Assembly: GCA_964533945.1 (NCBI GenBank)
Contig: CAZHPA010000004.1
Coordinates: forward strand, 15,180 to 79,179
Direction of reading: 5' to 3'
Source: an uncultured Defluviitaleaceae bacterium
Lineage (GTDB): Bacteria > Bacillota > Clostridia > Lachnospirales > WRBF01
Length of the DNA stretch: 64,000 nt
Shown here piece by piece: positions 16,830 through 64,000 of the stretch. A model generated the notes under the pieces. That model was not told the origin of the DNA, searched no databases, and was given only the letters and a program-made list of their open reading frames with translations. A program made the position numbers and the translations under genes. Numbering within the stretch: the stretch's first letter is position 1; every line of letters begins with the position of its first letter.

Positions 16830-16852
16830 AAACGGGCAATTGCCCGTTTTTG
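16830..16852 (+). terminator. Intrinsic terminator after secG
   Basis: Perfect palindrome AAACGGGCAATTGCCCGTTT followed by a T-run. Confidence 0.8.
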
Positions 16853-16884
16853 CGTTTCCAATTATTTTTTAAGGGGTATTTAAA

Positions 16885-17568: not shown

Positions 17569-17691
17569 ATAAATTTGAAGCTTGGATTTTAATTGAATGG
17601 CTTGATTAATGGGATACTTTCTTTTCATAGTTACATTAACAATTTTATTAATAAATCTAAAAAAGTTAGAAAATAGCATGGAGGTTAATTT

Positions 17692-18639
17692 ATGGCATAT
17701 TTGCTTTTAATAGCCGGTTTTATAGTTTTAATTAAAGGAGCAGATTTTTTCGTTTCGGGCGGTTCTTCTATTGCTGCAATTTTAAAAATTCCGCCATTAA
17801 TAATTGGGCTAACAATTATTTCTTTCGGAACAAGTGCACCCGAAGCCGCAATAAGCATTGCCGCTTCCTTAAAACAAAGTGCCGGAATGTCTATTGGTAA
17901 TGCTGTTGGTTCTAATATGTTTAATCTTTTGCCTGTCATTGGCGTTTCTGCTGTTTTATCTCCTATTTTAGTTAAAAAATCTATACTTATTAAAGACTAC
18001 CCTTTTAGCATTTTGTCTGCATTAGTTCTTTTTGTTTTAGCATCGGATACATTTTTAGGCGCAGAAGCAAAAATTTTATCACGTTCAGATGGAATTATTT
18101 TATTAATATTTTTCGGTATTTTTCTATACTATTTAATAGTTGACGCTCTTAGTAACAAATATCAAGAAAATGCAGAAACAAAAAAGCTTCCGTTTCTGCT
18201 TTCTGTTTTCTATTGCATATTTGGCATTTTATGCATAATATTTGGCGGTCAGCTTGTTGTTTCAAACGCTTCAATTATTGCTAAAAGCTTTAATATGAGC
18301 GATGAATTAATAGGGCTAACAGTCGTTGCAATAGGAACAAGCCTTCCCGAATTTGTTACGTCTGTTGTTGCAGCTAGAAAAGGAGAAAGTGATATTGCCG
18401 TTGGAAACGTTATTGGTTCTAACATTTTCAACATATTTTTCGTGCTTGGCACTTCTGCCGCAATTTCTCCGCTTGCTGTTGATTCTAAAGTTTATGTTAG
18501 TATAATAATATTTTTTGCCGCTTCGTTGTTTTGCTATATGTTTATATACACGGGGCATAAAATAACCCGAACAGAAGGGCTGCTTATGACGGCGCTATAT
18601 ATTCTTTATTTTGGATTTACAATTATATATGGGGTTTAA
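17692..18639 (+). CDS. Calcium/sodium (cation) antiporter, CaCA/YrbG family
   Basis: Polytopic protein with both alpha-repeat signatures, GNAVGSNMFNLL and GNVIGSNIFNIF. Confidence 0.85.
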   Translation: MAYLLLIAGFIVLIKGADFFVSGGSSIAAILKIPPLIIGLTIISFGTSAPEAAISIAASLKQSAGMSIGNAVGSNMFNLLPVIGVSAVLSPILVKKSILIKDYPFSILSALVLFVLASDTFLGAEAKILSRSDGIILLIFFGIFLYYLIVDALSNKYQENAETKKLPFLLSVFYCIFGILCIIFGGQLVVSNASIIAKSFNMSDELIGLTVVAIGTSLPEFVTSVVAARKGESDIAVGNVIGSNIFNIFFVLGTSAAISPLAVDSKVYVSIIIFFAASLFCYMFIYTGHKITRTEGLLMTALYILYFGFTIIYGV

Positions 18640-48438: not shown

Positions 48439-51063
48439 ATGGGACAAAAATATGTTTATATGTTTTCAGAGGGCGATGGCTCAATGAAAAATTTGCTTGG
48501 TGGAAAAGGCGCAAACCTTGCTGAAATGACAAAGCTTGGGCTTCCAATTCCTCCCGGTTTTATCGTAACAACTGAAAGCTGCACACTATATAACACTTCG
48601 GGTAAAGTTTTATCAGATGAAATTAAAGCGCAAATTGACGCTTGTATGGCAGAACTTGAAAAAATATCAGATAAAAAATTCGGCGATACAAAAAATCCGC
48701 TTCTAGTTTCCGTGCGTTCAGGCTCAAGAGCTTCAATGCCCGGTATGATGGATACAGTTTTAAATTTAGGCTTAAATGACGATGCCGTTTCTGGTCTTGC
48801 TACAGCAACAGGCAACGAACGTTTTGCATACGATTCATATAGACGTTTCATTATGATGTTTTCGGACGTTGTAATTGGTGTTTCAAAGCATAAATTTGAA
48901 AGGGTTTTAGATGAATTTAAAGAACAAAAAGGCGTTAAAGACGATTTAGATTTAACTGTTGAAGACTTAAAATCAATAGTTTCAAAATTTAAACAAATAT
49001 ATAGAGAAGACCAAGGAAAAGAATTCCCATCTGATGCTAAAGAACAATTGTATGAAGCAATTTGTGCCGTCTTTAGGTCTTGGGACAACCCTCGTGCTTT
49101 CGTATACCGCCGTATGCACGACATACCATATGAATGGGGTACAGCAGTAAACGTACAATCAATGGTATTTGGCAACATGGGTGATGAATCCGGAACAGGC
49201 GTTGTTTTTACAAGAAATGCTGCAACAGGCGAAAATGCAATTTATGGCGAATACATGATGAATGCGCAAGGCGAAGACGTTGTTGCCGGCGTTCGTACTC
49301 CTAAGCCTTTTGCCGAACTTAAAGACGAAATGCCTGAAATTTACGAACAATTTATAAAATATGCAAATCTTTTAGAAAATCACTACAAAGATATGCAAGA
49401 TATGGAAATTACAATCGAAAACAAAAAACTATACTTCCTTCAAACAAGAAACGGCAAAAGAACAGCTCAAGCTGCTTTAAAAATTGCTGTTGATATGGTT
49501 AATGAAGGATTAATTACAGAAGAAGAAGCAATTATGAAGGTAGACCCAAAACAATTAGACCAACTTCTTCACCCAACGTTTGATGCTGAATCTTTAAAAG
49601 CAGCTAAAAGCATTGGTAAAGCGCTTCCTGCTTCTCCTGGTGCTGCAACAGGTAAAATTTACTTTAATGCAGAAGACGCTAAAGAAGCTGTTGCAAGAGG
49701 CGAAAAAGTTGTTTTAGTTCGTCTTGAAACTTCACCGGAAGACATTGAAGGAATGTATGTTTCTGAAGGCGTTTTAACAGTTCGTGGCGGTATGACTTCT
49801 CATGCGGCAGTTGTTGCTCGCGGTATGGGAAGATGTTGTGTTTCTGGCTGTGAAAAAATTAAAATGAATGAAGAAGAAAAATGCTTTGAATTAGACGGTG
49901 CTACTTTTAAAGAAGGCGATTTCCTTTCATTAGATGGTACAACAGGCATAATTTACGCTGGTTCAATTAAAACTGTTACTCCTGAAATTTCTGGCGATTT
50001 TGCGAAATTTATGGCTTGGGCAGACAAAGCAAGAACATTAAAAGTTAGAACAAATGCAGACACTCCTGCAGATGCTAAAAAAGCTGTTGAATTTGGCGCT
50101 GAAGGAATCGGCTTAACGCGTACTGAACATATGTTCTTTGAAGAATCACGTTTGCCAAAAATGCGCAAAATGATTTTATCAGATACAGAAGAAGAAAGAC
50201 GCGCTGCATTAAATGAGTTGTTACCTTTCCAAAAGGCAGACTTTGTAGGTATATATGAAGCTATGGAAGAACGCCCTGTAACAATTCGTCTTTTAGACCC
50301 ACCGCTCCATGAATTTTTACCTAAAGAAGATGCTGATTTTGAAGCTTTGGCGAAAGACATGAACAAACCTGTTGCAGAATTAAAAACAAAAGCAACAAAC
50401 CTTCACGAATTAAACCCAATGATGGGTCACCGTGGTTGCCGCCTTGCTGTTAGCTATCCTGAAATTGCAGAAATGCAAACTAAAGCAATAATAGAAGCGG
50501 CTATTGAAGTTAAAAAGAACAAAGGCTATAACATTATTCCGGAAATAATGATTCCACTTGTAGGCGACACTAAAGAGTTTAAATTCGTTAGAGAAATCGT
50601 TGACAAAACTGCTAAAGCTTTAATTGAAGAAACAGGCATTGAATTAAATTATATGGTTGGTACTATGATTGAAATTCCAAGAGCTTGCTTAACAGCAGAT
50701 GAAATTGCAAAAGATGCAGAATTTTTCTCATTTGGAACAAACGATTTAACACAAATGACATTTGGTCTTTCCCGTGACGATGCAGGAAAAATATTAAACG
50801 ACTATATCGAAAAGAAAATTTACGAAGGCGACCCAACAGCAAAATTAGACCAAACAGGCGTTGGTTCATTAATGAAAATAGCTGTTGAAAAAGGACAAAC
50901 AACAAGACCAAACATTAAGCTTGGTATTTGCGGCGAACACGGAGGCGAACCTTCAAGCATAGATTTCTGCCATAGAATTGGGCTTAACTATGTTTCATGC
51001 TCACCATTTAGAGTTCCAATAGCAAGACTTGCAGCAGCACAAGCGGCAATTTCTAATAAGTAG
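48439..51063 (+). CDS. ppdK: Pyruvate, phosphate dikinase
   Basis: 874 aa with LLGGKGANLAEM, the phosphohistidine region GGMTSHAAVVARGMG, and a C-terminal PEP-utilising TIM barrel (FFSFGTNDLTQ). Confidence 0.95.
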   Translation: MGQKYVYMFSEGDGSMKNLLGGKGANLAEMTKLGLPIPPGFIVTTESCTLYNTSGKVLSDEIKAQIDACMAELEKISDKKFGDTKNPLLVSVRSGSRASMPGMMDTVLNLGLNDDAVSGLATATGNERFAYDSYRRFIMMFSDVVIGVSKHKFERVLDEFKEQKGVKDDLDLTVEDLKSIVSKFKQIYREDQGKEFPSDAKEQLYEAICAVFRSWDNPRAFVYRRMHDIPYEWGTAVNVQSMVFGNMGDESGTGVVFTRNAATGENAIYGEYMMNAQGEDVVAGVRTPKPFAELKDEMPEIYEQFIKYANLLENHYKDMQDMEITIENKKLYFLQTRNGKRTAQAALKIAVDMVNEGLITEEEAIMKVDPKQLDQLLHPTFDAESLKAAKSIGKALPASPGAATGKIYFNAEDAKEAVARGEKVVLVRLETSPEDIEGMYVSEGVLTVRGGMTSHAAVVARGMGRCCVSGCEKIKMNEEEKCFELDGATFKEGDFLSLDGTTGIIYAGSIKTVTPEISGDFAKFMAWADKARTLKVRTNADTPADAKKAVEFGAEGIGLTRTEHMFFEESRLPKMRKMILSDTEEERRAALNELLPFQKADFVGIYEAMEERPVTIRLLDPPLHEFLPKEDADFEALAKDMNKPVAELKTKATNLHELNPMMGHRGCRLAVSYPEIAEMQTKAIIEAAIEVKKNKGYNIIPEIMIPLVGDTKEFKFVREIVDKTAKALIEETGIELNYMVGTMIEIPRACLTADEIAKDAEFFSFGTNDLTQMTFGLSRDDAGKILNDYIEKKIYEGDPTAKLDQTGVGSLMKIAVEKGQTTRPNIKLGICGEHGGEPSSIDFCHRIGLNYVSCSPFRVPIARLAAAQAAISNK

Positions 51064-51091
51064 ATTAAATAGATTTAATAAACCAAACCAT

Positions 51092-51120
51092 AAAGGGCGC
51101 TTAATTGCGCCTTTTGTGTT
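51092..51120 (+). terminator. Intrinsic terminator after ppdK
   Basis: AAGGGCGC-TTAATT-GCGCCTTTT followed by GTGTT. Confidence 0.75.
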
Positions 51121-51145
51121 AAGTATTTAAGGGAGGGTGCTAGAA

Positions 51146-51781
51146 ATGGATATATACAAAGTGTTTAATAGTTTGCTTTTACAAAACAGGATATTTAGCT
51201 CGGAAGCAGATTTTCAATTTGCACTAGCTTGGGAAATTAAGGCTGTATATGGTGATAGTGTAAATATCCGATTAGAATATATACCTTGGAAATATAATGA
51301 CAAAATGCATATTGATATTGCCGTCTTCTATCGTAAACATCTTATCTCAATAGAACTTAAATACATTAAAAACAGCTTAAAAATAAAACACCAAGGCGAA
51401 CATATCAAACTAAAAAGGCATACAGCACGCCATATTGGCGCTTACAAATACTTAAAGGATATTGAGCGTATGGAGGGTATAATAAATTCAAAGGAATACA
51501 ATATTAAGAAAGCTTACGCCATTATTTTGACAAATGATTCCGGTTACTGGCGAGATGTTCGAATAAAAAAACAACCCATTGATATGGCATTTAGAATATT
51601 TGAAGGTACAGCCATTTCTGGTAAACGAGAATGGGGAAAAGACGCTGGGGAAGGGACAATAAGAAATCATAAAGACCCCATTGTTTTCTCGGGTAGTTAT
51701 ACGATAAACTGGCAAAAATACAAGCCGGCAAGAGATGTTGGATTCCGGTATACGATTGCGGAAATAAAAAAGGGGATTTAA
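51146..51781 (+). CDS. PD-(D/E)xK nuclease-superfamily-like hypothetical protein
   Basis: The ordered motif SEADFQ ... HIDIAVF ... ISIELKY matches the E / D / ExK pattern of restriction-endonuclease-like folds. ATG at 51146 is 8 nt after GGGAGGG. Confidence 0.5.
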   Translation: MDIYKVFNSLLLQNRIFSSEADFQFALAWEIKAVYGDSVNIRLEYIPWKYNDKMHIDIAVFYRKHLISIELKYIKNSLKIKHQGEHIKLKRHTARHIGAYKYLKDIERMEGIINSKEYNIKKAYAIILTNDSGYWRDVRIKKQPIDMAFRIFEGTAISGKREWGKDAGEGTIRNHKDPIVFSGSYTINWQKYKPARDVGFRYTIAEIKKGI

Positions 51782-51785
51782 ATAT

Positions 51786-52310
51786 ATGGTTCATTTATAT
51801 TATGGCAACGGCAAAGGCAAAACAACTGCCGCAATAGGGTTATGCGTTCGTGCAATAGGGCATAGATTTAATGTTTTGTTTGCTCAATTTTTAAAAAGCG
51901 AACCTACAGGGGAAATTATATGCTTTGAAAAGCTTGGCAATCTTGATAATATAAAAGTTTTAAGAAGCCGAAAGCGCTTCCCTTTTACTCAAAGTATGAC
52001 TACCGAACAGCAACAGGAAATTATTGAAATTCATAACAATATTTTTAAAGAAGCAGCTAAAGCATATAAAGAAAGTAAATTTAAAATTATTGTATTAGAT
52101 GAAATTGTTTCCGCATATAATTATGGATTTATAGATAAAAACTTGATTGACGAATTTCTAAGCAATTTAAATCAAGATATTGAGCTTATTTTAACAGGGC
52201 ATGAACCAAATCAAAAATTTATTGATATTGCCGACTATGCTTCCGAAATTAAAAAGATAAAACACCCTTACGATTTAGGTATTTTGGGAAGGGTTGGGGT
52301 TGAATTATAA
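51786..52310 (+). CDS. cobO: Cob(I)yrinic acid a,c-diamide adenosyltransferase (CobA/CobO/BtuR family)
   Basis: GNGKGKTTAAIG P-loop, ILDEI motif, and the C-terminal TGHEP...ADYASEIKKIKHPYDLGILGRVGVEL typical of the family. Confidence 0.85.
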   Translation: MVHLYYGNGKGKTTAAIGLCVRAIGHRFNVLFAQFLKSEPTGEIICFEKLGNLDNIKVLRSRKRFPFTQSMTTEQQQEIIEIHNNIFKEAAKAYKESKFKIIVLDEIVSAYNYGFIDKNLIDEFLSNLNQDIELILTGHEPNQKFIDIADYASEIKKIKHPYDLGILGRVGVEL

Positions 52311-52515
52311 TTTTGTTGAAAATTGCAAGTTAAATTATAGCACAAGAACCTACTATTTTTATATAAAGCATATGTTATAACATTATTAAAAAATTGGGGT
52401 TAAAATATATAAAAACCTTATTAAAGCCATAAGTTAAATTATAACGCAAAAACGTATTATTTTATATCAAATATATGTTGCAACCTTGTTAAAAATTCGG
52501 AGTTGAATTACAATG
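52296..52515. repeat. Imperfect tandem repeat of about 100 bp (2.2 copies) that starts inside the cobO 3' end and ends at the chrA start codon
   Basis: Copies begin at 52296 (GGGGTTGAATTATAA), 52396 (GGGGTTAAAATATATAA) and 52499 (GGAGTTGAATTACAATG). The units share internal blocks such as AAGTTAAATTATA[G/A]C and ATATGTT. Confidence 0.7.
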
Positions 52516-53061
52516 CATAAAAAACATTACCTAAAACTGTTTATTTCAACATTTTATTTAAGCGCTTTTACGTTTGGCGGAGGATATGTTATAGTTTCTT
52601 TAATGAAGAAAAAATTTGTAGATAATTTAAAATGGATTGAAGAAGAAGAAATGTTAAATTTAATCGCAATAGCTCAAGCTTCCCCCGGAGCTGTTGCCGT
52701 TAACGCTTCCATTTTAATAGGATACCGTATTGGAGGAACTTTGGGGGCATTTATTGCAATATTAGGAACAGTTTTACCGCCGCTTATTATAATTTCTATA
52801 GTTTCTGTGTTTTATGCTTCTTTTCGCAACAACGAAATAATTAGCCGTGCGTTAAAAGCAATGCAACCTGCCGTTGCTGCTATAATATTTGATGTTGTAA
52901 TTAATATGGGGAAGAATACTGTTGAACAGAAAAAGAGTATGGCTATTTTTATTGGAGCTTTTATAGCAAACTATATATTTAAAATTAATGTTATTTATAT
53001 TATTGTAACTTGCGTAGTATTAGGCATTTTTCAAAGAAACGAAAAAGAGGAGAGGGCATGA
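52513..53061 (+). CDS. chrA: Chromate transporter family protein (short CHR, first half of a pair)
   Basis: About 180 aa and polytopic, with the FTFGGGYVIVSLM and IAIAQASPGAVAVN motifs typical of the CHR family. Confidence 0.85.
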   Translation: MHKKHYLKLFISTFYLSAFTFGGGYVIVSLMKKKFVDNLKWIEEEEMLNLIAIAQASPGAVAVNASILIGYRIGGTLGAFIAILGTVLPPLIIISIVSVFYASFRNNEIISRALKAMQPAVAAIIFDVVINMGKNTVEQKKSMAIFIGAFIANYIFKINVIYIIVTCVVLGIFQRNEKEERA

Positions 53062-53141
53062 ACCTTTTGAACACTATTTATGTCATCATAACTTGCATAA
53101 TATTAGGAGTTTTCAAAATAAGCAAAGGAGCAAAAGCATGA
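52987..53141. repeat. Tandem duplication with an 80-bp period covering the chrA-1 3' end and the ATGA stop/start junction
   Basis: 52991-53061 (TTATTTATATTATTGTAACTTGCGTAGTATTAGGCATTTTTCAAAG...GGCATGA) aligns with 53071-53141 (CTATTTATGTCATCATAACTTGCATAATATTAGGAGTTTTCAAAAT...AGCATGA). Confidence 0.8.
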
Positions 53142-53674
53142 TTTACTTAGAACTTTTTGTAAGTTTCTTTAAAATAGGGCTATTTACTATAGGCGGTGGC
53201 TATGCTGCAATACCTCTTATTCAAAATGAAGTTATAGATGTTAATAATTGGTTAACACTAGCACAATTTACAGATTTAATTACAATTGCCGAAATGACAC
53301 CTGGGCCCATAGCAATTAATTGTGCAACATTCGTTGGAATACAAGTTGGCGGCTTTTTGGGTGGCGTTGTTTCAACTATCGGCTGCATTTTTCCTTCTTG
53401 CATAATTGTTTCACTTCTTGCCTATTTATATTATAAATATAAAAATCTTGCAATAATTCAAAAGATTTTAAACAACCTAAGACCGGCTATTGTTGCTTTA
53501 ATTGCTTGCGCCGGATTGTCTATATTAAAGCTTTCAGTTTTAAGCGATTCTTATTCAATTAACGTAAAAGCCATTTTAATATTTATAGCCGTACTGTTTG
53601 CAATTAAAAAGTTTAAATTAAAAAATCCTATAATTGCAATGCTTGTCGCCGGTGTTATAGGAATATTAATGTAA
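53138..53674 (+). CDS. chrA: Chromate transporter family protein (short CHR, second half of a pair)
   Basis: FTIGGGYAAIPLI and IAEMTPGPIAINCATFVG motifs. ATG at 53138 follows AAAGGAG, so the ORF-track start at 53093 is rejected. Confidence 0.85.
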   Translation: MIYLELFVSFFKIGLFTIGGGYAAIPLIQNEVIDVNNWLTLAQFTDLITIAEMTPGPIAINCATFVGIQVGGFLGGVVSTIGCIFPSCIIVSLLAYLYYKYKNLAIIQKILNNLRPAIVALIACAGLSILKLSVLSDSYSINVKAILIFIAVLFAIKKFKLKNPIIAMLVAGVIGILM

Positions 53675-53736
53675 ACTTTTTTGTATTTAATACGTTGTTA
53701 TACATAATACGACATTTATTTAATTACTTTTAATTA

Positions 53737-53766
53737 TTGATATTGTGTCGTAATATGTATTATAAT
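53737..53766 (+). promoter_or_regulatory. Putative sigma-A promoter for the vWA/tubulin-like cluster
   Basis: TTGATA, 18 nt, TATAAT, about 30 nt upstream of the GTG start. Confidence 0.45.
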
Positions 53767-53796
53767 AAAGTATATTTAATCGAAAGAGGGTGCATT

Positions 53797-55839
53797 GTGG
53801 TTAGAAAAATATTATGCTTTATCGTATTTATTTTTAGTGTATATACAGTATATACATACGCTGCTCAAAGCGCAAATCCAAACAATCATATTGATGCCGT
53901 GCTTGTAATTGATACAAGCAATTCAATGAATGGCAACGACCCCATGCACATAGCCGTTGAAGGCGTTAAGCTTTTTATTGATATGTTGGAACATAGCGGC
54001 TCAAGAGTTGGTTTTGTTGGGTTTAACGGAAGCGTTGTTTCTGAAATACCACTTACAGAAATTAACACATTTCAAGATAAAATAGATATTTTAGATAAAG
54101 TAGGCAAAATAAAATATACAGGCTATACAGACATTGGGCTTGCGCTTAAAACGGCAGAATCGCTTTTATTAAACACACAAGATAAAGGCAACAACCAAAT
54201 GATTTTAATGTTTACAGACGGCTTTGTTGAAGTTGACAGTAAAACAGGAAGAACAGAACAACAATCAAATCAGGAAATAGAAGACGTTTTGTCTTCGGCA
54301 ATGTCAAATTACCCTATATACACAATAGGCTTAAATAGCAGCGATAGAGTGGACAAAGATTTAATAGATAAAATAGCCAACCAAACAAGTGCTAAAAGCT
54401 ATATGACAAATAACGCCGAAGACTTGCCTGAAATTTTTAACGAAATTTTCGCAAGGCATATTAAATCAAATGTAATAAATGTAGGTTCAGTTATTGCCGA
54501 TGGAACAAATTATGAAACATTTGACATAAACATACCAAACCCAAACATAGCAGAAGCAAATATTGTTTTACTATCAGACAGCAAATTAATAGACGTAAGG
54601 TTAACAAACCCAAATAATCAAAATATTTTACTAACACAATCAAATGGAATTTATTATTCCAATTCGTCAAAATATTCTGTAATTAAAATTGTTAACCCAA
54701 TGCAAGGGGATTGGGTTTTGCATATTAAAGGCGCTAAGGGCAGCCAAATTAAAGTTAATTTAATTTATAACTACGACATTGTTCTTGAAGCCAAATTGCC
54801 AAAAGATGCAAAAGACGTTGTTAAAGGGGAAACTTTAAACGTTTCGGCTTTTATATCAGACCAAAACGGTACAACGCTTGGCAGTGATTTAATTTCTTCA
54901 TTTAGTGCAGAGCTTAATGTTTTAAATGAAACTGGTCAAATAATTGAAGCCGTTGCTATGAATCATGTTAAAGATAATGAATTTGCTGCAGTTTGCAACA
55001 TTCCAAACTATGATGGGCAAATAAGCATTATTGTAAAAGCCGCAGGTTCAGGGTTTTATAGAGAAAGCCAGCCTATTGTAATAGATTTAGAAAACAAGCC
55101 GCCAAAGCTTGAAAACCCTATATCAAATAAGTTTTATTTTTATTTGCCAATGGCTGTTTTAAATTCAACTATCAACTTAAACGAAGTTTTTAACGACCCA
55201 GATAATTTAGAAGATTTAGAATATAAGATTACAGCAGATAAAGATTACATAAGCTTCGATGAGTCAAACGGAAAAGCAAAAATAAAAACAAGCAAAATAT
55301 TAAATTTTGGAACAGCGGAAGTAATAATTGAATGCATAGACCCAGCCAAAGAAAAGGCAGAAGCAAGCTTTAAAATAATTTTAATACCAATTTTGCCTTT
55401 TGGCTTGGTAATTTTAATAGTTATAGGTTTGATAGCAATAAAAGCCGGAAAGCAAAAAAACATAAGGCTATCGGGCTACATTCAATGCATACTTTCCGTT
55501 GACGGTGTTAACGGAGCAAGCGAAATAACAAATACGCAGGCATATAAAGGCATAGTTAATATGTCGCAGTTTGTAGGCGAGCAAGTTTTAGAAAAATTGC
55601 CAGAACTTAAAAAAATTTCTTTTTGTCAATTAACACAATCAGGGAGCAAATTAGGTGAATTAGGCGGGGAAGCTTGGGAATTTAAAAATAAATCACGCTA
55701 CAAAATAAATAAAATGATGCTTGAATTAAAAGACGAAAAGTTTGTTATTGTTAAAGGAGAAACTTTTGAAATAAGAGAATTAAGAAGCAGTGATGATGAA
55801 AATGAAGGGGAAGTTTTGATAGTAACCTTTATAAAGTAG
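53797..55839 (+). CDS. Type-I membrane protein: signal peptide, extracytoplasmic vWA domain with complete MIDAS, beta-rich stalk, single TM segment, and a cytoplasmic tail domain of about 130 aa
   Basis: GTG at 53797 is 6 nt after AAAGAGGG. The signal peptide is VRKILCFIVFIFSVYTVYTYA/AQS. MIDAS elements are DTSNS (53911-53925), GYTDIG and MFTDG. The TM segment is ILIPILPFGLVILIVIGLIAI, followed by KAGKQK. Confidence 0.8.
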   Translation: MVRKILCFIVFIFSVYTVYTYAAQSANPNNHIDAVLVIDTSNSMNGNDPMHIAVEGVKLFIDMLEHSGSRVGFVGFNGSVVSEIPLTEINTFQDKIDILDKVGKIKYTGYTDIGLALKTAESLLLNTQDKGNNQMILMFTDGFVEVDSKTGRTEQQSNQEIEDVLSSAMSNYPIYTIGLNSSDRVDKDLIDKIANQTSAKSYMTNNAEDLPEIFNEIFARHIKSNVINVGSVIADGTNYETFDINIPNPNIAEANIVLLSDSKLIDVRLTNPNNQNILLTQSNGIYYSNSSKYSVIKIVNPMQGDWVLHIKGAKGSQIKVNLIYNYDIVLEAKLPKDAKDVVKGETLNVSAFISDQNGTTLGSDLISSFSAELNVLNETGQIIEAVAMNHVKDNEFAAVCNIPNYDGQISIIVKAAGSGFYRESQPIVIDLENKPPKLENPISNKFYFYLPMAVLNSTINLNEVFNDPDNLEDLEYKITADKDYISFDESNGKAKIKTSKILNFGTAEVIIECIDPAKEKAEASFKIILIPILPFGLVILIVIGLIAIKAGKQKNIRLSGYIQCILSVDGVNGASEITNTQAYKGIVNMSQFVGEQVLEKLPELKKISFCQLTQSGSKLGELGGEAWEFKNKSRYKINKMMLELKDEKFVIVKGETFEIRELRSSDDENEGEVLIVTFIK

Positions 55840-55863
55840 AAAATAAAAAGGAGTTGTAAGTTA

Positions 55864-58800
55864 ATGCCATTAAACGAAACACTTAAAACCCATTTAAAAA
55901 GCAATTTAATGCGTGGTGTCGGAAGTGGTTTGCATTTAAAAAGCAGAAATTCAAAGCTTATAGATGCCCCAATTTTAGTTATAGGTTTAGGCGGAACAGG
56001 CGCAAACTCCTTAATTCGCCTAAAAAGCCTTATTAACGAAAGAATTAATTCAGATTTTAACAACGAAAAGCCTAAAAATATTGAATATTTAGCTATAGAT
56101 ACCGATATGTCAACAAAAGATTTTCAACATAAAGGCGTGTCTTTTTCAAAGGCAAATTCTGAAGTTTGCATTTATGCACATGCAAATCTAGGAAGAACAT
56201 ATGAAGATTTATGCAAGCGCCCCGAAAGCTTGCCTCACATTACAAGCTGGATTTCTCACGGCATGGACGTTAGCAAAATTACAAACGGCGCAGGCGGCGT
56301 TAGGCAAGTTGGAAGATTTTTAATGTTTAAAGAGTTTAACGACATTGAAAACAAAATTACAACTAAAGTTGAATCTATTTTAAACGGATATTCCGCCGAC
56401 AAAATGGTTTTTGTATTTATTGCAACAGGCGTTTCGGGCGGAACAGGAAGCGGAACTTTTTTAGATATTCCATATATCGTTAAAGAAATTTTAAGGCGAA
56501 AAGGGTTTAATGCCCAAATGCTAGGTTTTATATTTTTGCCCGACGTTAATATTAGCGTTATAGATAGAAATGACCACGCCAAAGTTCGTGCTATTAAGCG
56601 CAACGGCTTTGCTGCTTTAAAAGAACTAGATTTTTTAATGAACCTTGGCAATGAGGGTAACAGAGAACGCTTTGTTCAGGAATACAGCAGCAACTTTAAA
56701 GTTGATTACGGTGAACCTCCATATGATGTTTGCCATTTAGTTTCTACTATAAATAAAAGAGGATTAATAACTAACTCTATAGACGACTGCATGAACGTTG
56801 TTTCTGAAACAATTGCAAACTTTATTTCAGGCGAAAGTGGCGTTATATCAGGAGTTTCAGGAGGTTCAACAGATGATTTTTCCGTTGCACAATATATTTC
56901 AAATATTTCAGATACCATTAATACGTTTGTTGCAGGGCTTTCTGTTAAATATCCAATCAATTATAAATATTTGGCAATCGGCAGTTCATCAGGTGTTTTG
57001 CCTATGGACGACATATTAAACTACATTGCAAGCACATTATTTGAACGCATATATGAAATATACAACCGTTTGCCTGAAAAGTCGGAAGTTTTAAACTTTG
57101 CAAATATGCTTGGAATAAACAGAGAAGGAATTTATGTTGCTGTATGCAAAAACAGCGAATTGCCAACGTATGGGTACGATTTCGATACGCTAAAAGCAAA
57201 CCCAAACATTTTAAGACTTGCTTTTGAAGAAAGCATTGAAAAATCTTTATCTATAATCAAAGAAAACGTTAGCGATTTCATAGATTCCTTTAAAGAAAAC
57301 GCAAACAAAAAAATAGAAGAAGTATTTTTAGATAACAAAAAAGGCCCATACTTCGCTTCAAGATTAATTAGTTCTATAGAAAACTATTGCTTGCTTGCCC
57401 ATATTAAAGATTTAAGAAATAAGCTAGTGCTTGAAAAAGTAAATGATGCCGATATGGAAAGGCTTAGAAAAAATGTTGAATTAACACAACGAAAAATTGC
57501 AACTTCTGAACCTTTGCTTGGGTTTGGCAAAAATGGGCTTGCTGATAATCACATTAAAGCTTGCAATGAATATTATTCAAAGCGAATGTTTAATAACGTT
57601 TTTGACGGCATGATTAAATGCTTTGAAGCATTTTACAAATATTTAAATGACAAAAACGATGATTTATTCGATTTGCTTGCAGAAACAATTACATTACTTA
57701 AAAATATATTTGCAGATTATGGAAGCATTGACGGCGACATTTCCCTTACAAGTGAAGAAAGTACAACAACTTTAACATGGGACATAATAGATAAAAAAGT
57801 TTTAGCCGAAACTGTTAAGTTAATGATAAACGACGAAAGCGAAGTTAAATTTAACACAGTTATTGACGAATTTATTAAAGAACTTAACGCTAATTCCGCC
57901 ACATGGCTAAACTGCTCAAAGCCAAACGCTGTAGCAAAGCTAAACGATTTTATTAACAATAGGTTCGACAACATTCTTAATAAATCGCTTGACTTTTATA
58001 TAAGTAAGATTGCCAACGACGATAAAATTAGAATAGACAGCGAAGCACAGCAAATAACAGAAAAGCTTGCTAAAAATGCACAAGTTATGTTTCCTGTTAA
58101 CGTTTTCGGCGATAATTTAAACGCTTCTTTGTATAGCTATATGTCTGTTCCGTCTAACGCCGACATAATTAAAAGCAAACTTGAAGCCGATACAGGCGGC
58201 AAAATGATTAAACAAAGCATTATAACAAACCGTGTTTTTATGCTTAAAGTTAATTTGGTTTACCCTTTAATGGCATATAGAGAGCTTGAAAGCTATGAAG
58301 CGGAATACGAAAAGTTTTCGGAAGAAAGAGCCGGCATAGGAATGCATTTATACGAAAACAACACTAGAAATTGGAGGGAATTACCTTCTCCAATATATGA
58401 CAATGCTTGGTCACCAACATATAAAAACGAGCGCCTTAAAGCTTCAAACAACAAAATTAGAAGCTTATTTGATAAAGCGCTTAAATATAAATATATACAA
58501 TGGGACACTAAAGAAAACAAGGTTGCTTGCAAGTTTAAGCAGGAAATTAATATAAAGACGTTTTTAAATGAATGCAACATAGAAAATATTAACGACATAG
58601 ATTCAATAAGTGTTGCCAGCGCAAATTTGGCACTTAATAAGCTAAAATCTATTTTAGCCGAGGATAGTTGGCAAGGCGTTGAATATCTTTACGATTACAA
58701 GCTTAAAGATGGCGAGCCCGATTTGGAATTTTCGAAAGCGATTTTTATAAATATGCCAACGCTTAATAAGCATATGCAAAAAATGATTGACCAGCACGAA

Positions 58801-59253
58801 CAGTTGCTTGAAATTGAGCAAAAGCTTATGAAAATACAAGGAAGCGTTGCCGTTTATTCCCATTTTGCCGCCGTTTTATATACTTCTTTAATTAGAAAAA
58901 GCAGAGGCATATATAAATACACAGATAACAAACAATTAGAGAAAATTTTGCTTGAACCTAACACAAATGAGCTTGAATATATAGAATACTATTTGTATAA
59001 GGCATTCAAGCAAATGCCCGATGCCGAACGCGAATATTTAAACAGCACAGCAAGAAAAACTATAAACGAATGCAACGACGACGAATTTAAAAAATGCATA
59101 GACGTTATGGAAAACTTTGAAAATATGTTCAAAGAAAAGACCCAAAAGCTTACAACAACATATTTATCTGAATTTGAAGGAGACAAAAAGTCAAGCTTCT
59201 ATCAAGTTATGCGTGAAGAAATGAAAAAAGCGCTTGAAAAATATTCTGAATAA
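55864..59253 (+). CDS. Giant (1129 aa) tubulin/FtsZ-superfamily-like GTPase with a long helical C-terminal extension
   Basis: T1-like loop VIGLGGTGANS (55984-56007), T3-like NGAGGVRQVGR (56284-56316), and T4 tubulin signature GVSGGTGSGT (56428-56457). A possible T7/H8-like NGFAALKELDF follows. There is no signal peptide or TM segment. SD AAAGGAG. Confidence 0.75.
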   Translation: MPLNETLKTHLKSNLMRGVGSGLHLKSRNSKLIDAPILVIGLGGTGANSLIRLKSLINERINSDFNNEKPKNIEYLAIDTDMSTKDFQHKGVSFSKANSEVCIYAHANLGRTYEDLCKRPESLPHITSWISHGMDVSKITNGAGGVRQVGRFLMFKEFNDIENKITTKVESILNGYSADKMVFVFIATGVSGGTGSGTFLDIPYIVKEILRRKGFNAQMLGFIFLPDVNISVIDRNDHAKVRAIKRNGFAALKELDFLMNLGNEGNRERFVQEYSSNFKVDYGEPPYDVCHLVSTINKRGLITNSIDDCMNVVSETIANFISGESGVISGVSGGSTDDFSVAQYISNISDTINTFVAGLSVKYPINYKYLAIGSSSGVLPMDDILNYIASTLFERIYEIYNRLPEKSEVLNFANMLGINREGIYVAVCKNSELPTYGYDFDTLKANPNILRLAFEESIEKSLSIIKENVSDFIDSFKENANKKIEEVFLDNKKGPYFASRLISSIENYCLLAHIKDLRNKLVLEKVNDADMERLRKNVELTQRKIATSEPLLGFGKNGLADNHIKACNEYYSKRMFNNVFDGMIKCFEAFYKYLNDKNDDLFDLLAETITLLKNIFADYGSIDGDISLTSEESTTTLTWDIIDKKVLAETVKLMINDESEVKFNTVIDEFIKELNANSATWLNCSKPNAVAKLNDFINNRFDNILNKSLDFYISKIANDDKIRIDSEAQQITEKLAKNAQVMFPVNVFGDNLNASLYSYMSVPSNADIIKSKLEADTGGKMIKQSIITNRVFMLKVNLVYPLMAYRELESYEAEYEKFSEERAGIGMHLYENNTRNWRELPSPIYDNAWSPTYKNERLKASNNKIRSLFDKALKYKYIQWDTKENKVACKFKQEINIKTFLNECNIENINDIDSISVASANLALNKLKSILAEDSWQGVEYLYDYKLKDGEPDLEFSKAIFINMPTLNKHMQKMIDQHEQLLEIEQKLMKIQGSVAVYSHFAAVLYTSLIRKSRGIYKYTDNKQLEKILLEPNTNELEYIEYYLYKAFKQMPDAEREYLNSTARKTINECNDDEFKKCIDVMENFENMFKEKTQKLTTTYLSEFEGDKKSSFYQVMREEMKKALEKYSE

Positions 59254-59280
59254 ATTCAAATAAAATTTTGGGAGGATAGT

Positions 59281-59682
59281 ATGTTAAAAAAATCCCCAAA
59301 CCAAAGCCTGTGTCCATATTATTATATGGGCGGAGAGCTTCATCCGTTGAAATATGGAAGTTATTTTAATGATAAAACGGCTTTATTTAACATTATAGAT
59401 GCCGAGGAGCAGTTTATATTAGAATCATTCGGAATAAATAATAGTTGTATTTGGATTGATTTATATGAAACAGCGCTTGACCACAAAGTTATTAAAAAGC
59501 TTAGTATGCATTTAAATAATATAAATCATAAAATACGCAAGCTTTGCTTTGTAGGTTGTTCATGGGTTAATAAAAATAAGCTAAAAAATAAAATAAAAAT
59601 TAAAAATATGGATTTATCCAAACAAATTAAGTTTTTTTCAGACCCCAAATTGGCTAAACAGTGGTTAGTTGGAAATAGGTGA
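59281..59682 (+). CDS. Small hypothetical protein of the cluster (133 aa)
   Basis: SD GGGAGG lies 7 nt upstream. No motif I can name with confidence. Confidence 0.5.
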   Translation: MLKKSPNQSLCPYYYMGGELHPLKYGSYFNDKTALFNIIDAEEQFILESFGINNSCIWIDLYETALDHKVIKKLSMHLNNINHKIRKLCFVGCSWVNKNKLKNKIKIKNMDLSKQIKFFSDPKLAKQWLVGNR

Positions 59683-59686
59683 GTTT

Positions 59687-61609
59687 ATGTTAAAGCTTAC
59701 GCACCCTGTGCTTTATGTGTTTTTTGATGAACAATCAAAAGACACATTAAGGCTTCTTTGCAATGAAAAGTTTCAGAATACGCAAAGCATTGCTTATTTA
59801 AATATAAAAAGTAAAGACGACTTGGATTTTGATACATTAGTTAATATCAATAGAAGGTTTCTTGAAAAAGAATATTCAAGACCTTTTGAAAGGCGAATAT
59901 ATTTTATTGTTGATTCAAACAAAAAGCTTCTTGTTTCTTTATCAGATGCTGTTTTATTTATTAAAAGCTTTTTTGAAAATATAAACATAACACCAATAAT
60001 AGATATTTTCGCACTTACAGATGAAGCCAAGCTTCCAAATTTAAACATTCAGCAAGCAATTACTAATACATACGACGAACTTAAATTTTTGGCAACAAGT
60101 AATTTATGCAATATGGTATATATAATTTCCAACTTAAATAGCAAAGGCGTATTAATTAATGACTATATGCAGTTTTATCAAGCAATTGTTTTATGCTCCA
60201 TTTTAAAAGATTGTTCTAAAACAGGCTATGATGAGTTAAACTTTTTGCAAAACTGCGAAGCCAAAAATAAAGACGGCTATTTTTACACAGTTGGTATGAA
60301 AAAAATTAGTAAGCCTATAGAAATTTTAAGCTCTGTAATTCTTAAACAAATAATTGATGAAAATAGCATAATTTACGAAAAAAGTAAAGATAGTAATATT
60401 GTTGCAGAAATGCTTGAAAGCTTTTTAAAAACTATTGATGAAATATTTAAGGCAGCCGAACAAAAATATAGCTTAAACGTTAATTCTCTTGCAATAAACA
60501 TAGAAATGCAAAACAGGCTGTTTAATTGCAACGGGGATGCTTTAGATGCTTGCTTTGGAGAAAGCTATGTTGATTTATATTACGAAATTAACTACGAAAA
60601 AGAATGCGGCGTTATAGCTTCAAAAATTGTTTATGAACACTGCAAAACACTAAAAGAAGCCGTTTATGGCTGTATTGAAAATGAAAACGTTGGTTTTTTT
60701 GCAGTTAAGCGTATGCTTTACAAACTTAAGAGTGAGCATTTGCCTGAATTAAAAGAGCGTATAAAAGAAGAAATATTTAATGCAGAAAGTATGTTGCAAA
60801 CATGGCAAAATGAACAGCCTGTAATTACTAAAGGTTTGAAAAAAGTAAATGCATTTGGCAATGCGCTTTTTTTCCCTTTTGAGTTGGCACAGTTTTACAT
60901 AGCCCTTAAAAACGACTACTTTAAATGCAAAGCAAAACTTAGCGCTTTATTTCAATACGAAACCGTACTGCTTGAATTTATAAACAACTTTAAAAATATA
61001 TGCGAAAAGCTTAGTTTTAATTGCGATAAATTAAACGGATTTATAAAATTAAGCCTTAGCGAAAAACCAACGCTAATCGCTGAAAACTTCGAGCAATATT
61101 ATTCAAATAAAGCTTGTATGTATATTGCAAATAATTTTAAAAGCTACTTTAAACAACTATATAAAGATTTTTATAAATTAGGATTTGAAAATATCGAAGC
61201 ATTGTACAAAGAGTGCAACGCATATATTAGCAAGCTTATAGGAAGTGATAGCTTTAACTTAGATATATACAGCGAAATATACGAGCGGATTAAAAGTAAT
61301 ATAAGTACAGAATTTAAAACCGAAGAAAGCATAGCAAGACTTTTAATCGAAGAAATAAAAGAGGACAAAATTTATTTTTCAAAGCTTACATCGGCAGCTA
61401 ACTTTTTTGATAGTGTTTGCCTAATTACAGGTGATGGACAACTTGTTGAAAAACTTTCCGAAAAAAATACATTGGGTCATTTAAATGTATTTTTTGATTT
61501 ATTTCTTAACCTTAATAATTTTAATGAGGGCGAACAGCTTGATGTAGTATACTTTATTGGGAAATTTTCAATAGAACAAATGCATTATTCAAACCTATAT
61601 AAGCTATAA
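59687..61609 (+). CDS. Hypothetical cytoplasmic protein of the cluster (about 640 aa)
   Basis: ATG at 59687 is 4 nt after the upstream stop, and AGGTGAG overlaps that stop. TTG at 59669 is an alternative start. The N-terminus alternates beta and alpha segments, and the remainder looks helical. Confidence 0.55.
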   Translation: MLKLTHPVLYVFFDEQSKDTLRLLCNEKFQNTQSIAYLNIKSKDDLDFDTLVNINRRFLEKEYSRPFERRIYFIVDSNKKLLVSLSDAVLFIKSFFENINITPIIDIFALTDEAKLPNLNIQQAITNTYDELKFLATSNLCNMVYIISNLNSKGVLINDYMQFYQAIVLCSILKDCSKTGYDELNFLQNCEAKNKDGYFYTVGMKKISKPIEILSSVILKQIIDENSIIYEKSKDSNIVAEMLESFLKTIDEIFKAAEQKYSLNVNSLAINIEMQNRLFNCNGDALDACFGESYVDLYYEINYEKECGVIASKIVYEHCKTLKEAVYGCIENENVGFFAVKRMLYKLKSEHLPELKERIKEEIFNAESMLQTWQNEQPVITKGLKKVNAFGNALFFPFELAQFYIALKNDYFKCKAKLSALFQYETVLLEFINNFKNICEKLSFNCDKLNGFIKLSLSEKPTLIAENFEQYYSNKACMYIANNFKSYFKQLYKDFYKLGFENIEALYKECNAYISKLIGSDSFNLDIYSEIYERIKSNISTEFKTEESIARLLIEEIKEDKIYFSKLTSAANFFDSVCLITGDGQLVEKLSEKNTLGHLNVFFDLFLNLNNFNEGEQLDVVYFIGKFSIEQMHYSNLYKL

Positions 61610-61763
61610 GCGGTAACTTAATATAACATATTTTAACTTAGAAACAAATAAGCAAATACACTATTTCAACCTATACAAACTATAAGGGAAACTTAACATA
61701 ATAATTTTAATTTAAAAGCAGGTAAATAAATGCATTATTTTAACCTATACAAAATGTAAATGG
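61578..61763. repeat. Tandem repeat of about 75 bp (2.4 copies) beginning in the last 10 codons of the 640-aa gene and ending just before the next start codon
   Basis: Copies are anchored at 61580 (ATGCATTATTCAAACCTATATAAGCTATAA), 61656 (ATACACTATTTCAACCTATACAAACTATAA) and 61730 (ATGCATTATTTTAACCTATACAAAATGTAA). Confidence 0.8.
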
Positions 61764-63035
61764 GTGATTACTTTGAAAAAAATATTAGATATACCGCTTT
61801 TGCTATTTACAGCACTAGCAGCTTTAATTTCTTTTTTTGTCGGGGAAATGCTGCTTAAAGCTTTTTGTGAAAGTATAGATAACATAGCTTTAATGGGTAT
61901 ATATTTTTGCGCTGTTGGCTCAATTATAGTTTTGTTTACAAATATTTGCGCCTATAAATTAAGCCCAATTGCAAAAATGCTGCCTGCTCCTAATGCTTTT
62001 AAAAAATCGGCGCTTCTTTTTGGCTTTTTAGTAGCTTTACTTTTATTTTTGTTTGGCTGTCTTTTTCAATTTTTATATAGCTTTGATAAAAAAGAGTCAA
62101 AAAGTTCAAACTTAAACTATATAGTTGCAATAGATAATTCGGGTAGCATGTTAAATACAGACCCATTATTTAAACGATACACCGCATTAAAACAGCTCTT
62201 TGAATCTATGGCTTCTAATAAAAAAGGCAAAAAGCAAAACCTTGGAGTATATGTATTTACAGATGGAAACGAAAAAGTATTTTCAATGCAGGAAATAACA
62301 AGTAATCATGTAAATCAATTTGATAGCATATTTTCACAGCATATGGTATCAAACGGTGGAACTAACATTATGAAAGTTCTTGAAGCTATAGCAGAAGACC
62401 CAGACTTAACAGAAAATACAAATATCGTTTTAATCTCAGATGGAGAAAGCCCAGTATATGACGATACATTGGAAAAATTAAAAGAGAAAAGCATTCGTGT
62501 TGATACTGTGGGTGTTTTTGAAGCCGAACCCGACAACGCCTTGCGAAAAATTTCAACAGAAACAGGCGGAACATATTTTAATATAGATAAAATCGAACAA
62601 TTAACAGGCGTTTTAAATAACATAACTACTTTAAAAATGGAAGACCGGCTGTTAACAGCACGCCGCCTTGATTTGGAAAATTCGGTTAATTACATTGTTA
62701 TGCATTTAGCTTTTATATTTTTGCTCGCGCTAATAATAAAAATAATTCAAGCTTTAATTATGGACATAAAAAGCGTTAGGGCAGCTTTGTTTTCACAAGC
62801 ACTTTGCTTTAGCTTAATTTCTTCTTTACTTATGGAAGCTTTGTTTTTAAAGACAGAACTTAGCGAAAGCGTCGTACGCTGTATTGTAATTGCATTTATT
62901 TCGCTTTTGGTGCTTTTAATTGGGAAAGAACAAACAAATATTATAAATTTCGGTTCTGCCAGTAGCATTAACAGCGCAAGCTTCGGCTTTAACAGAGAAT
63001 ACGTAAACAAAGGGAAACAAAAAGTTTTAAAATAA
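61764..63035 (+). CDS. Polytopic membrane protein with a vWA domain (complete MIDAS) inserted between TM3 and TM4
   Basis: Three N-terminal TM segments, MIDAS DNSGS (62133-62147) with GGTNI and LISDGE, three C-terminal TM segments and a basic tail. The start is GTG 61764 or TTG 61773, and the SD is weak. Confidence 0.75.
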   Translation: MITLKKILDIPLLLFTALAALISFFVGEMLLKAFCESIDNIALMGIYFCAVGSIIVLFTNICAYKLSPIAKMLPAPNAFKKSALLFGFLVALLLFLFGCLFQFLYSFDKKESKSSNLNYIVAIDNSGSMLNTDPLFKRYTALKQLFESMASNKKGKKQNLGVYVFTDGNEKVFSMQEITSNHVNQFDSIFSQHMVSNGGTNIMKVLEAIAEDPDLTENTNIVLISDGESPVYDDTLEKLKEKSIRVDTVGVFEAEPDNALRKISTETGGTYFNIDKIEQLTGVLNNITTLKMEDRLLTARRLDLENSVNYIVMHLAFIFLLALIIKIIQALIMDIKSVRAALFSQALCFSLISSLLMEALFLKTELSESVVRCIVIAFISLLVLLIGKEQTNIINFGSASSINSASFGFNREYVNKGKQKVLK

Positions 63036-63056
63036 TTAGATTTGGGAGGTGTTTTT

Positions 63057-63725
63057 GTGGAGTTAGACATAGTTAATGTTTTTAAAGACGAGGAGCAATC
63101 GTTTTTTATAAAAAATTTAAACGGCAAAGTTTTAGAAAGTGGAATAATTATGCTAAATTGGGATTGGCCTGAAGTGCATTCGGATATGGACGGAGTTTAT
63201 ATATTTGAAATTAAAGACGAAAGCGAAGATTTGGAAACACTTGTTGAACGCTTTAACGAAATGGAAACACCCCCAATATATATACCACGGAAAGCTTTTG
63301 GCGGAGAAAAATTTAAATGGCGAGAAGCAATGAAAGAAAAAAAACTGCAATTAAAACTTTTCCCTGTTAAAACAAATAAGTATAAAGCTATTATATATAG
63401 GCAAACATCTGGAAACTGCACGCAAGTTTTTTATAAGCCCGTAAGCTTAAAAAGAAAAGTTTTATATAGGCATATTAATTTTAAAACTAAAATAGCAACA
63501 TTCGAGTTCGAGAAAAAAATGCTTTTTCTTTTGAATGAATTGCCAATAGATTGTTTGCTCTTTTGCAAATATAATAAAAAGACAATGGTTCCAATTTGCT
63601 ACTACCCAGTTAATTTAGAAGTTTTATGCAATTCATCTTACGAAATTGCAATTGAAAGCAGCTGCAACATTGATTTAATTTGTAACGATAAATATAACGG
63701 CGCTATTGTAGTTAAAGACTTTTAG
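63057..63725 (+). CDS. Hypothetical protein of the cluster (about 222 aa)
   Basis: GTG at 63057 is 6-7 nt after GGGAGGTG. No motif recognised. Confidence 0.5.
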   Translation: MELDIVNVFKDEEQSFFIKNLNGKVLESGIIMLNWDWPEVHSDMDGVYIFEIKDESEDLETLVERFNEMETPPIYIPRKAFGGEKFKWREAMKEKKLQLKLFPVKTNKYKAIIYRQTSGNCTQVFYKPVSLKRKVLYRHINFKTKIATFEFEKKMLFLLNELPIDCLLFCKYNKKTMVPICYYPVNLEVLCNSSYEIAIESSCNIDLICNDKYNGAIVVKDF

Positions 63726-63758
63726 AAGTCTTAGAAAACTTGGAAAGGAGAAAATTTT

Positions 63759-64000
63759 ATGGGCAGAGAAGTTAAATGTTTTTTCTGTTTTGAATACTTT
63801 AAGCCAGAAGAAGCGCACTTTAGGGCAAAAAAGCATATTAAAAAAATAGATAGCCTAAGCGAAGACGAGTATGTCGTTGATGAAAAATTAAAAGCTTACT
63901 ATAAAAAATTTTTGCAATATGATGATGACAGTGCAGAAAGTGCCGCAAGGCTTCTTCCAACGTTTAAAATAGACCAAAACCGAAAAATTGTTGAAGTTAG
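63759..64000 (+). CDS. Hypothetical protein, 3' partial (runs off the window), absent from the ORF track
   Basis: ATG at 63759 is 8 nt after AAAGGAG. The frame is open for 80 codons to the window end. The N-terminus is MGREVKCFFCFEYFKPEEAHFRAKK. Confidence 0.45.
   Translation, partial: MGREVKCFFCFEYFKPEEAHFRAKKHIKKIDSLSEDEYVVDEKLKAYYKKFLQYDDDSAESAARLLPTFKIDQNRKIVEV

Follow-up and report, generated by a model that had tools for sequence, protein, structure and literature searches.

A window of 64,000 nucleotides (nt) from an uncultured Defluviitaleaceae bacterium (GenBank assembly GCA_964533945.1, contig CAZHPA010000004.1, positions 15,180 to 79,179 of the forward strand) encodes a protein of 1129 amino acids (aa), for which a first-pass annotation made from the sequence alone had noted FtsZ-like nucleotide-binding loops and an unusually long C-terminal part. 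Our analysis identifies this protein as an ordinary full-length member of the FtsZl1 family (Pfam Tubulin_2) of the FtsZ/tubulin superfamily, a family that was described computationally in 2010 (Makarova and Koonin 2010; PMC2875224). About one third of it, at the N terminus, forms a true GTPase domain of this superfamily, in which the T1, T3 and T4 loops are intact. The protein forms the cytoplasmic core of an operon that is chromosomal and conserved and represents the firmicute "tubulin theme" among the GAP1-N2-type DO-GTPase systems, a group of predicted conflict systems (Kaur, Burroughs, Iyer and Aravind 2020; PMC7159879). We infer that its most likely role is a membrane-coupled, GTP-dependent assembly, triggered via vWA sensors and a GTPase switch. 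Taken jointly, the FtsZl1 identity, the conserved operon and this assembly mechanism are highly probable in our view.

The tubulin-like GTPase domain

The Pfam Tubulin_2 model (PF13809) matches residues 38-397 of the protein with 221.8 bits (E 2e-65; the curated cutoff is 27 bits), and the match spans positions 1-355 of the 356 positions of the model. The classical Tubulin/FtsZ GTPase model (PF00091) gives a weak match of 29 bits, slightly below its cutoff. Hundreds of full-length homologues carry the NCBI name "tubulin-like domain-containing protein", among them proteins from Paenibacillus, Neobacillus, Clostridium and Lachnospiraceae; the full-length homologue of Clostridium kluyveri is 29% identical to the 1129-aa protein. 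Its closest non-identical relative reaches 45% identity, and the nearest genome matches are Defluviitaleaceae metagenome-assembled genomes (MAGs). The gene is preceded by an AAGGAG ribosome-binding site 9 nt 5' of its ATG.

The open reading frame (ORF) and the positions of the motifs quoted in the first-pass annotation, including IATGVSGGTGSGTF at residues 186-199, were reproduced (Table 1), and its assignment of three of these segments to the T1, T3 and T4 loops of FtsZ holds. We aligned the best 120 full-length homologues, which are 1106-1162 aa long and align end to end at 90-100% coverage; all conservation values for the 1129-aa protein refer to this alignment. Invariant residues are G41, G43, G44 and G46 in T1, G142, R147, Q148, G150 and R151 in T3, and G189, G192, G193, T194, G195, G197 and D201 in the S4/T4 region. 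The T4 signature has the variant form SGGTGSG, the counterpart of GGGTGTG in FtsZ, in which S196 is conserved in at least 90% of the homologues. In a profile alignment with hhalign, residues 32-199 of the family correspond to residues 8-113 of E. coli FtsZ with E 1.4e-5 and 39% identity in the aligned columns. This alignment pairs all three loops and also the S2 strand (EYLAIDTD with EFFAVNTD). The loop motifs thus found lie far above chance level.

The fold agrees with the motifs. An AlphaFold2 model of the full-length protein, built from the 120-sequence alignment, reached a mean predicted local distance difference test (pLDDT) score of 88.1 and a predicted template modelling (pTM) score of 0.76. 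Nearly all of the top 50 Foldseek matches in the PDB were FtsZ, alpha-, beta- and gamma-tubulin, TubZ, BtubB, Asgard tubulin and PhuZ, at a probability of 1.00 over about 350-390 aligned columns (best E 3.9e-4), and among viral predicted structures (BFVD) phage tubulins and PhuZ were the only scorers. The superfamily assignment therefore stands, and the tubulin fold, on whose presence the first-pass annotation had staked its reading, is there in the prediction. The domain carries insertions of about 40 residues between S3 and T3 and of a hairpin between H5 and S6. It very likely binds GTP through T1, T3 and T4.

The segment NGFAALKELDF had been put forward as a possible T7/H8 element supplying the catalytic acidic residue. 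It is strongly conserved, with N247, A250, K253, E254 and L255 invariant, and is part of model helix 238-259. Since this helix lies where H5 sits, between strand 217-224 (S5), to which the invariant P226-D227 is joined on the C-terminal side, and strand 289-293 (S6), the segment is probably not T7. Its placement at H5 agrees with the description of the family, in which H5 is the last alignable element (Makarova and Koonin 2010; PMC2875224). By the order of secondary-structure elements and by spacing, N319-F320-x-x-x-E324 appears to be the better T7 candidate. It sits where helix 306-321 ends; after it come a Gly/Ser-rich loop (328-337) that is disordered, and then helix 339-358. N319 is conserved in at least 90% of the homologues and F320 in every one, and position 324 always holds D or E (100%). 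The distance of +5 from the Asn to the acidic residue is the same as in the T7 reference residues N207/D212 of FtsZ and N249/E254 of alpha-tubulin.

The C-terminal tail and the loop-less paralogue

Because the FtsZl1/Tubulin_2 family is recognised, the atypicality that had been ascribed to the size and the C-terminal extension of the protein vanishes: about 1100-1160 aa including the tail is the standard architecture of this family. The remark that about 70 percent of the protein is unassigned is borne out in so far as no Pfam domain matches residues 398-1129. It fails in that the region is conserved within the family and was described in 2010 as a coiled-coil region and an alpha-helical domain. 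When residues 460-1129 were searched alone against 1.84 billion cluster representatives, 146 proteins were found, nearly all of them about 1000-1260 aa long and matched at positions of about 450-1130; most of the others are short entries, which we took as fragments. The matches are essentially confined to one architecture, and the tail is therefore a family-specific module that is co-inherited with the GTPase domain.

In the model the tail consists of long helices (449-488, 556-620, 965-1006 and others) and of alpha/beta elements around residues 740-1030, as assigned by DSSP. The long-helix region 401-740 corresponds to the coiled-coil region described for the FtsZl1 family. Residues 750-850 stand out by a block conservation of 0.57-0.61 versus 0.33-0.50 in the adjoining blocks and contain the invariant residues P763, S785, Y815, G826, H828, W837, L840, P841 and P843. 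This conservation, which equals that of the GTPase domain, hints at another functional surface. That the tail takes part in docking or assembly, as the first-pass annotation had considered, is plausible; the genes next to the tubulin-like gene encode membrane vWA proteins and a degenerate paralogue.

Neither Foldseek against the PDB nor a hidden Markov model (HMM) of the family against PDB sequences yielded a reliable structural analogue of the tail. We rejected a similarity to BDLP/dynamin (Foldseek probability 0.28-0.66, TM-score at most 0.16), and helical matches of the family HMM to adenylosuccinate lyase and to the F-BAR domain of Fes (E 0.02) were treated as noise. FtsZ itself was merely marginal in the search with the family HMM (E 0.67).

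Directly 3' of the tubulin-like gene, in 83 of the 84 loci compared (from Clostridia and Bacilli), lies a gene for a degenerate tubulin-like paralogue. The protein of the window has no database match of its own, and its family is only 13-31% identical. In a profile comparison, hhalign aligned the paralogue family (82 sequences) colinearly with the tubulin-like family, residues 3-645 with 26-816, at a probability of 96.7% and E 3.4e-10, whereas control runs against the other five operon families gave E 0.07-0.76. Strands S1, S2, S4 and S5 line up in this profile-profile alignment. The G-rich loops are missing: "PVLYVFFDEQ" stands in place of "PILVIGLGGTG" at T1, and "YFIVDSNKK" in place of "VFIATGVSGGTGSG" at T4. 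The S3-T3 segment is deleted, and the helical tail is present. Since the paralogue has lost the G-rich loops, the system would encode one nucleotide-competent and one nucleotide-incompetent tubulin-like subunit. A search with a 38-sequence profile of the paralogue, our third homologue search, returned the same two proteins only, and an AlphaFold2 model built from two sequences (pLDDT 35) is unusable and too poor to confirm the fold.

A different arrangement was seen in locus L086 (positions 1625-11897; Logan SRR13490891). There the operon starts with a homologue of the paralogue, followed by genes for a vWA protein, a 201-aa protein, a DO-GTPase, GAP1-N2 and an 1133-aa protein. The 13.7 kb covered contain neither an intact Tubulin_2 gene nor the first vWA gene, and the genes upstream run in the opposite direction. 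This locus suggests that the loop-less paralogue is able to operate without a GTP-competent copy.

The operon and its genomic surroundings

All genes of the operon lie on the + strand with short gaps (Table 1), and no terminator-like site was found on this strand inside the operon (53737-64000). The best promoter candidate is the top match within positions 51000-64000; the region holds 59 promoter-like sites versus 59.2 expected from shuffled sequences, so that even the best site is a candidate only.

Table 1. Positions of the tubulin-like gene, its domains and motifs, and the other operon features in the window
Feature	Position	Strand	Basis
Best sigma-70-like promoter candidate, TTGATA, 18 nt spacer, TATAAT	53737..53766	+	11/12 positions
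vWA protein 1	53797..55839	+	Pfam VWA E 8e-18
FtsZl1/Tubulin_2 family tubulin-like protein, 1129 aa	55864..59253	+	ATG start
Tubulin_2 domain, FtsZ/tubulin-type GTPase core, residues 38-397	55975..57054	+	PF13809, Foldseek
T1 loop VIGLGGTGANS, residues 39-49	55978..56010	+	Invariant Gly residues; pairs with FtsZ VIGVGGGGGNA
T3 loop NGAGGVRQVGR, residues 141-151	56284..56316	+	Pairs with FtsZ GAGANPEVGR
Strand S4 and T4 signature IATGVSGGTGSGTFLDIP, residues 186-203	56419..56472	+	Pairs with FtsZ IAAGMGGGTGTGAA
NGFAALKELDF, residues 247-257, conserved helix at H5 position	56602..56634	+	Model and conservation
Alternative T7 candidate N319-F320-x-x-x-E324	56818..56835	+	Spacing, conservation, element order
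Long-helix region, residues 401-740, with helices 449-488 and 556-620	57064..58083	+	DSSP, pLDDT mostly 85-95
Conserved alpha/beta core, residues 750-850	58111..58413	+	Conservation like GTPase domain
133-aa lineage-specific ORF of uncertain status, between the two tubulin-like genes	59281..59682	+	ORF
Degenerate tubulin-like paralogue, 646 aa (longest ORF) or 640 aa (start 59687)	59669..61609	+	hhalign
vWA protein 2, multi-pass	61764..63035	+	Pfam VWA E 3e-12
Fast-evolving 227-aa protein (p227), in the operon position of the FNIII-repeat component of Kaur et al.	63042..63725	+	Homologues in 82/84 loci
DO-GTPase gene, 5' end, cut by window end	63759..64000	+	Continuation on contig L001

The order vWA, tubulin-like, paralogue, vWA, p227, DO-GTPase, GAP1 occurs in 48 of the 84 loci, and close variants of it in most others. 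Cultured carriers include Priestia megaterium S2, Neobacillus vireti, Paenibacillus species and C. kluyveri. The gene for the multi-pass vWA protein is absent from the operon in 9-16 loci (L007-L020 and others), mostly termite-gut Defluviitaleaceae MAGs, which have the order vWA, tubulin-like, paralogue, p227, DO-GTPase.

Two membrane proteins with vWA domains flank the tubulin-like pair. The first likely starts with the GTG at 53797, after AGAGGGTG, the longest ORF beginning at 53737. It comprises a signal anchor, an extracytoplasmic vWA domain, Ig-like beta domains, one transmembrane helix (residues 547-565 in the 700-aa numbering) and a cytoplasmic tail of about 135 aa. Its metal ion-dependent adhesion site (MIDAS) motif is intact, with DxSxS, T and D invariant in 35 orthologues, and of these orthologues 10 match MG2, 16 match GBD and two give a weak YtkA-like match. 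For the second, the transmembrane prediction gives three N-terminal helices, an extracytoplasmic vWA domain and two C-terminal helices. The p227 family is 13-23% identical, and neither a Pfam match nor a PDB sequence-profile match, fibronectin type III (FNIII) included, was obtained for it. The 133-aa ORF has no Pfam, NCBIfam or PADLOC match. Among the 84 loci it is present solely in two contigs that are identical to the window and absent from the other 82; in the nearest relative (L085) the paralogue follows 10 nt after the tubulin-like gene. It is called as a gene in L001 and not in L002.

The window ends within the DO-GTPase gene. We read the remainder from L001, a public contig that shares 13,271 identical nt with the window, so that the following genes lie outside the window proper. 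The complete DO-GTPase matches PF19993 (DO-GTPase2) with 31.7 bits (cutoff 27) and contains a Walker A motif (GDTYSGKT), DIAGE, SKTD and two CxxC motifs. Genes with GAP1-N2 and GAP1-M domains follow 3' of it (PF20013 37.9 bits, PF20014 34.8 bits, both above their cutoffs). On L001 the GAP1 gene appears split or duplicated (14444-18524, about 65.2-69.3 kb in window coordinates): the first protein has 486 aa with GAP1-N2 and GAP1-M, and the second has at least 860 aa with GAP1-M and C-terminal transmembrane helices. In Paenibacillus and Neobacillus loci a single GAP1 of about 950-1050 aa is found.

The operon is flanked in the window by ordinary genes of a Clostridia chromosome, such as those for Mfd, IspH-S1, a methyl-accepting chemotaxis protein, an alpha-N-acetylglucosaminidase (NAGLU) with cohesin and dockerin, GH3 and PPDK, and no phage or plasmid genes were evident among the subset of window ORFs that was scanned. 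The NAGLU enzyme (33162-39641, - strand) is a secreted protein of 2160 aa with NAGLU N, TIM-barrel and C domains, F5/8 type C modules, an Ig domain, cohesin and dockerin, a cellulosome-style architecture. A 214-aa ORF (51137-51781, + strand), two genes upstream of the operon between the genes for PPDK and cob(I)alamin adenosyltransferase, has no Pfam or PADLOC match. At 14631-16556 (+ strand) IspH (LytB) is fused to four S1 RNA-binding domains in a protein of 641 aa. Such fusions are known from Clostridia, and this one agrees with the taxonomic placement to which the nearest loci point.

Proposed mechanism, alternatives and comparison with described families

We propose that the N-terminal domain of the 1129-aa protein, binding GTP through T1, T3 and T4, would pair with the loop-less paralogue, and that the long helices together with the conserved C-terminal core may bring about higher-order assembly and touch the tails that the vWA proteins extend into the cytoplasm. 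When the extracellular vWA domains capture a ligand at their MIDAS, this could be relayed through the DO-GTPase/GAP1 switch, which would then license GTP-dependent assembly under the membrane.

Several observations weigh against this proposal. The mechanism is an inference, and literature searches found no experimental study of any member of the FtsZl1 family. The TM-scores of the Foldseek matches are modest (0.34-0.46 normalised to the target, with a root-mean-square deviation of 6-13 A). The protein has no match to FtsZ_C (PF12327) or Tubulin_C (PF03953) at E <= 0.1, its T7 loop is not recognisable, and beyond S6, after residue 300, the model consists of helices and a lone strand (369-378), whereas FtsZ has a C-terminal sheet of four strands there. 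Because neither the T7 loop nor the FtsZ/tubulin C-terminal domain can be recognised, an FtsZ-type protofilament as the form of assembly stays tentative, and we lean slightly against it. With regard to the purpose, housekeeping genes and not a defence island adjoin the operon, and when seven proteins of the locus were compared with the PADLOC-DB 2.0 models, none matched at E <= 0.1. Because of these neighbours, the label "conflict system" is without independent support here.

A GTP switch or scaffold that does not polymerise, acting as a conformational switch or dimerisation module fixed by the helical tail and forming no protofilaments, was raised by Makarova and Koonin (PMC2875224) and repeated in a 2011 review. 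The unrecognisable T7 and C-terminal activation domain favour it, and a partner without G-rich loops would interrupt a homotypic, GTP-sandwiching filament. However, N319, F320 and E324 are conserved with a T7-like spacing, and alpha/beta-tubulin and BtubA/B are heterodimers that still polymerise despite one non-exchanging or non-hydrolysing site. A multimeric assembly is also what Kaur et al. (PMC7159879) favour, and we regard the non-polymerising switch as doubtful, if a serious contender. An obligate heterodimer of the intact and the loop-less subunit, comparable to alpha/beta-tubulin or BtubA/B, might polymerise with GTP under the membrane through a non-canonical catalytic contact, with N319/E324 or the 750-850 core replacing a classical T7 and C-terminal domain. 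Triggered by ligands bound at the vWA MIDAS outside the cell and via DO-GTPase/GAP1, it would form a signal-gated transmembrane cytoskeleton for defence or envelope remodelling; this arrangement strikes us as improbable. A machine for membrane remodelling or vesicle biogenesis, which would shape or pinch off membrane in a housekeeping or developmental role instead of fighting invaders (Makarova and Koonin 2010; PMC2875224), competes with our reading as to what the system is for and not as to its identity. Besides the argument of that paper, this purpose would suit the two membrane vWA proteins, the chromosomal operon amid housekeeping genes and the lack of a match to the PADLOC models. Weak helical matches to F-BAR and BDLP point in the same direction but remain below any reliable threshold. 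Conflict systems fit better with the rapid evolution of the paralogue and p227, with the patchy distribution and with the DO-GTPase/GAP1 switch, which is common to effector-bearing systems (PMC7159879), and membrane remodelling as the purpose is in our judgement rather unlikely.

A length of two to three times that of FtsZ, TubZ or PhuZ and residues 398-1129 without a Pfam domain could be taken to mean that the protein is a novel relative of FtsZ, TubZ and PhuZ, atypical in its size and with a C-terminal extension that has no precedent. The architecture has been in print since 2010 (PMC2875224), the full-length homologues in NCBI count in the hundreds, and the tail is co-inherited with the GTPase domain, so this extremely improbable reading is already refuted. 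Both the family of the "oversized FtsZ", on record since 2010, and its operon type, on record since 2020, have been catalogued, and the protein is a routine case that is already known in kind; what interest remains lies in the FtsZl1 family as a whole being experimentally unexplored. Still more improbable is a cell-division FtsZ or a TubZ/PhuZ-type tubulin for plasmid or phage DNA segregation, a reading favoured by the fold that the 1129-aa protein shares with FtsZ, TubZ and PhuZ. The NCBIfam ftsZ model (TIGR00065) reaches 23 bits versus a cutoff of 295.2, and FtsZ_C is not matched. The chromosomal context among Mfd, IspH-S1 and PPDK, in which the scanned ORFs gave no sign of phage or plasmid genes, speaks against a segregation tubulin, and vWA proteins, a DO-GTPase and GAP1 take the place that TubR with a centromere, or division genes, would have as partners. 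A membrane-coupled assembly built on an FtsZl1 protein remains our preferred reading.

The locus fits the published descriptions of 2010 and 2020 item by item. FtsZl1 proteins, with C. kluyveri among the representatives, have conserved T1 and T4 loops and are alignable up to H5, whereas T6-H7 and the C-terminal domain are not alignable; the FtsZ-like domain at the N terminus is followed by a coiled-coil region and an alpha-helical C-terminal domain in about 1050-1150 aa (Makarova and Koonin 2010; PMC2875224). Their operons encode vWA proteins, divergent GTPases and membrane proteins, and a role in membrane remodelling was predicted (PMC2875224). In reviews and phylogenies published since, the family figures as a divergent outgroup whose function is unknown. 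The window locus shares the GTPase domain, the helical tail, the length and an operon with vWA proteins and a divergent P-loop GTPase. It differs in that its copy belongs to a divergent lineage and that no protein kinase or OmpA gene is present, and nothing essential differs.

In the firmicute tubulin theme, two genes encode tubulin-domain proteins with coiled-coil tails and two encode vWA proteins, of which one is YtkA-fused and the other has multiple transmembrane helices and its vWA domain outside the cell; an FNIII protein that evolves fast, GAP1 and a DO-GTPase with zinc ribbons complete the set, for which a regulated cytoskeleton-like assembly in biological conflict was predicted (Kaur et al. 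2020; PMC7159879). In agreement with this, the window locus has two tubulin-like proteins, two vWA proteins and a small fast-evolving protein, and its continuation on L001 has a DO-GTPase with zinc ribbon, GAP1-N2 and GAP1-M. Differences are the apparently split or duplicated GAP1 and the extra 133-aa ORF. Neither of the published labels YtkA and FNIII could be firmly reproduced at the window locus, YtkA giving weak matches and FNIII none. With FtsZ, tubulin, BtubA/B, TubZ and PhuZ the 1129-aa protein has the Rossmann-like GTPase fold and the T1, T3 and T4 loops in common, and it differs from them by its family-specific tail of about 730 residues and by its other partner genes. The intact copy beside a degenerate paralogue would recall the pairing of subunits in alpha/beta-tubulin and BtubA/B.

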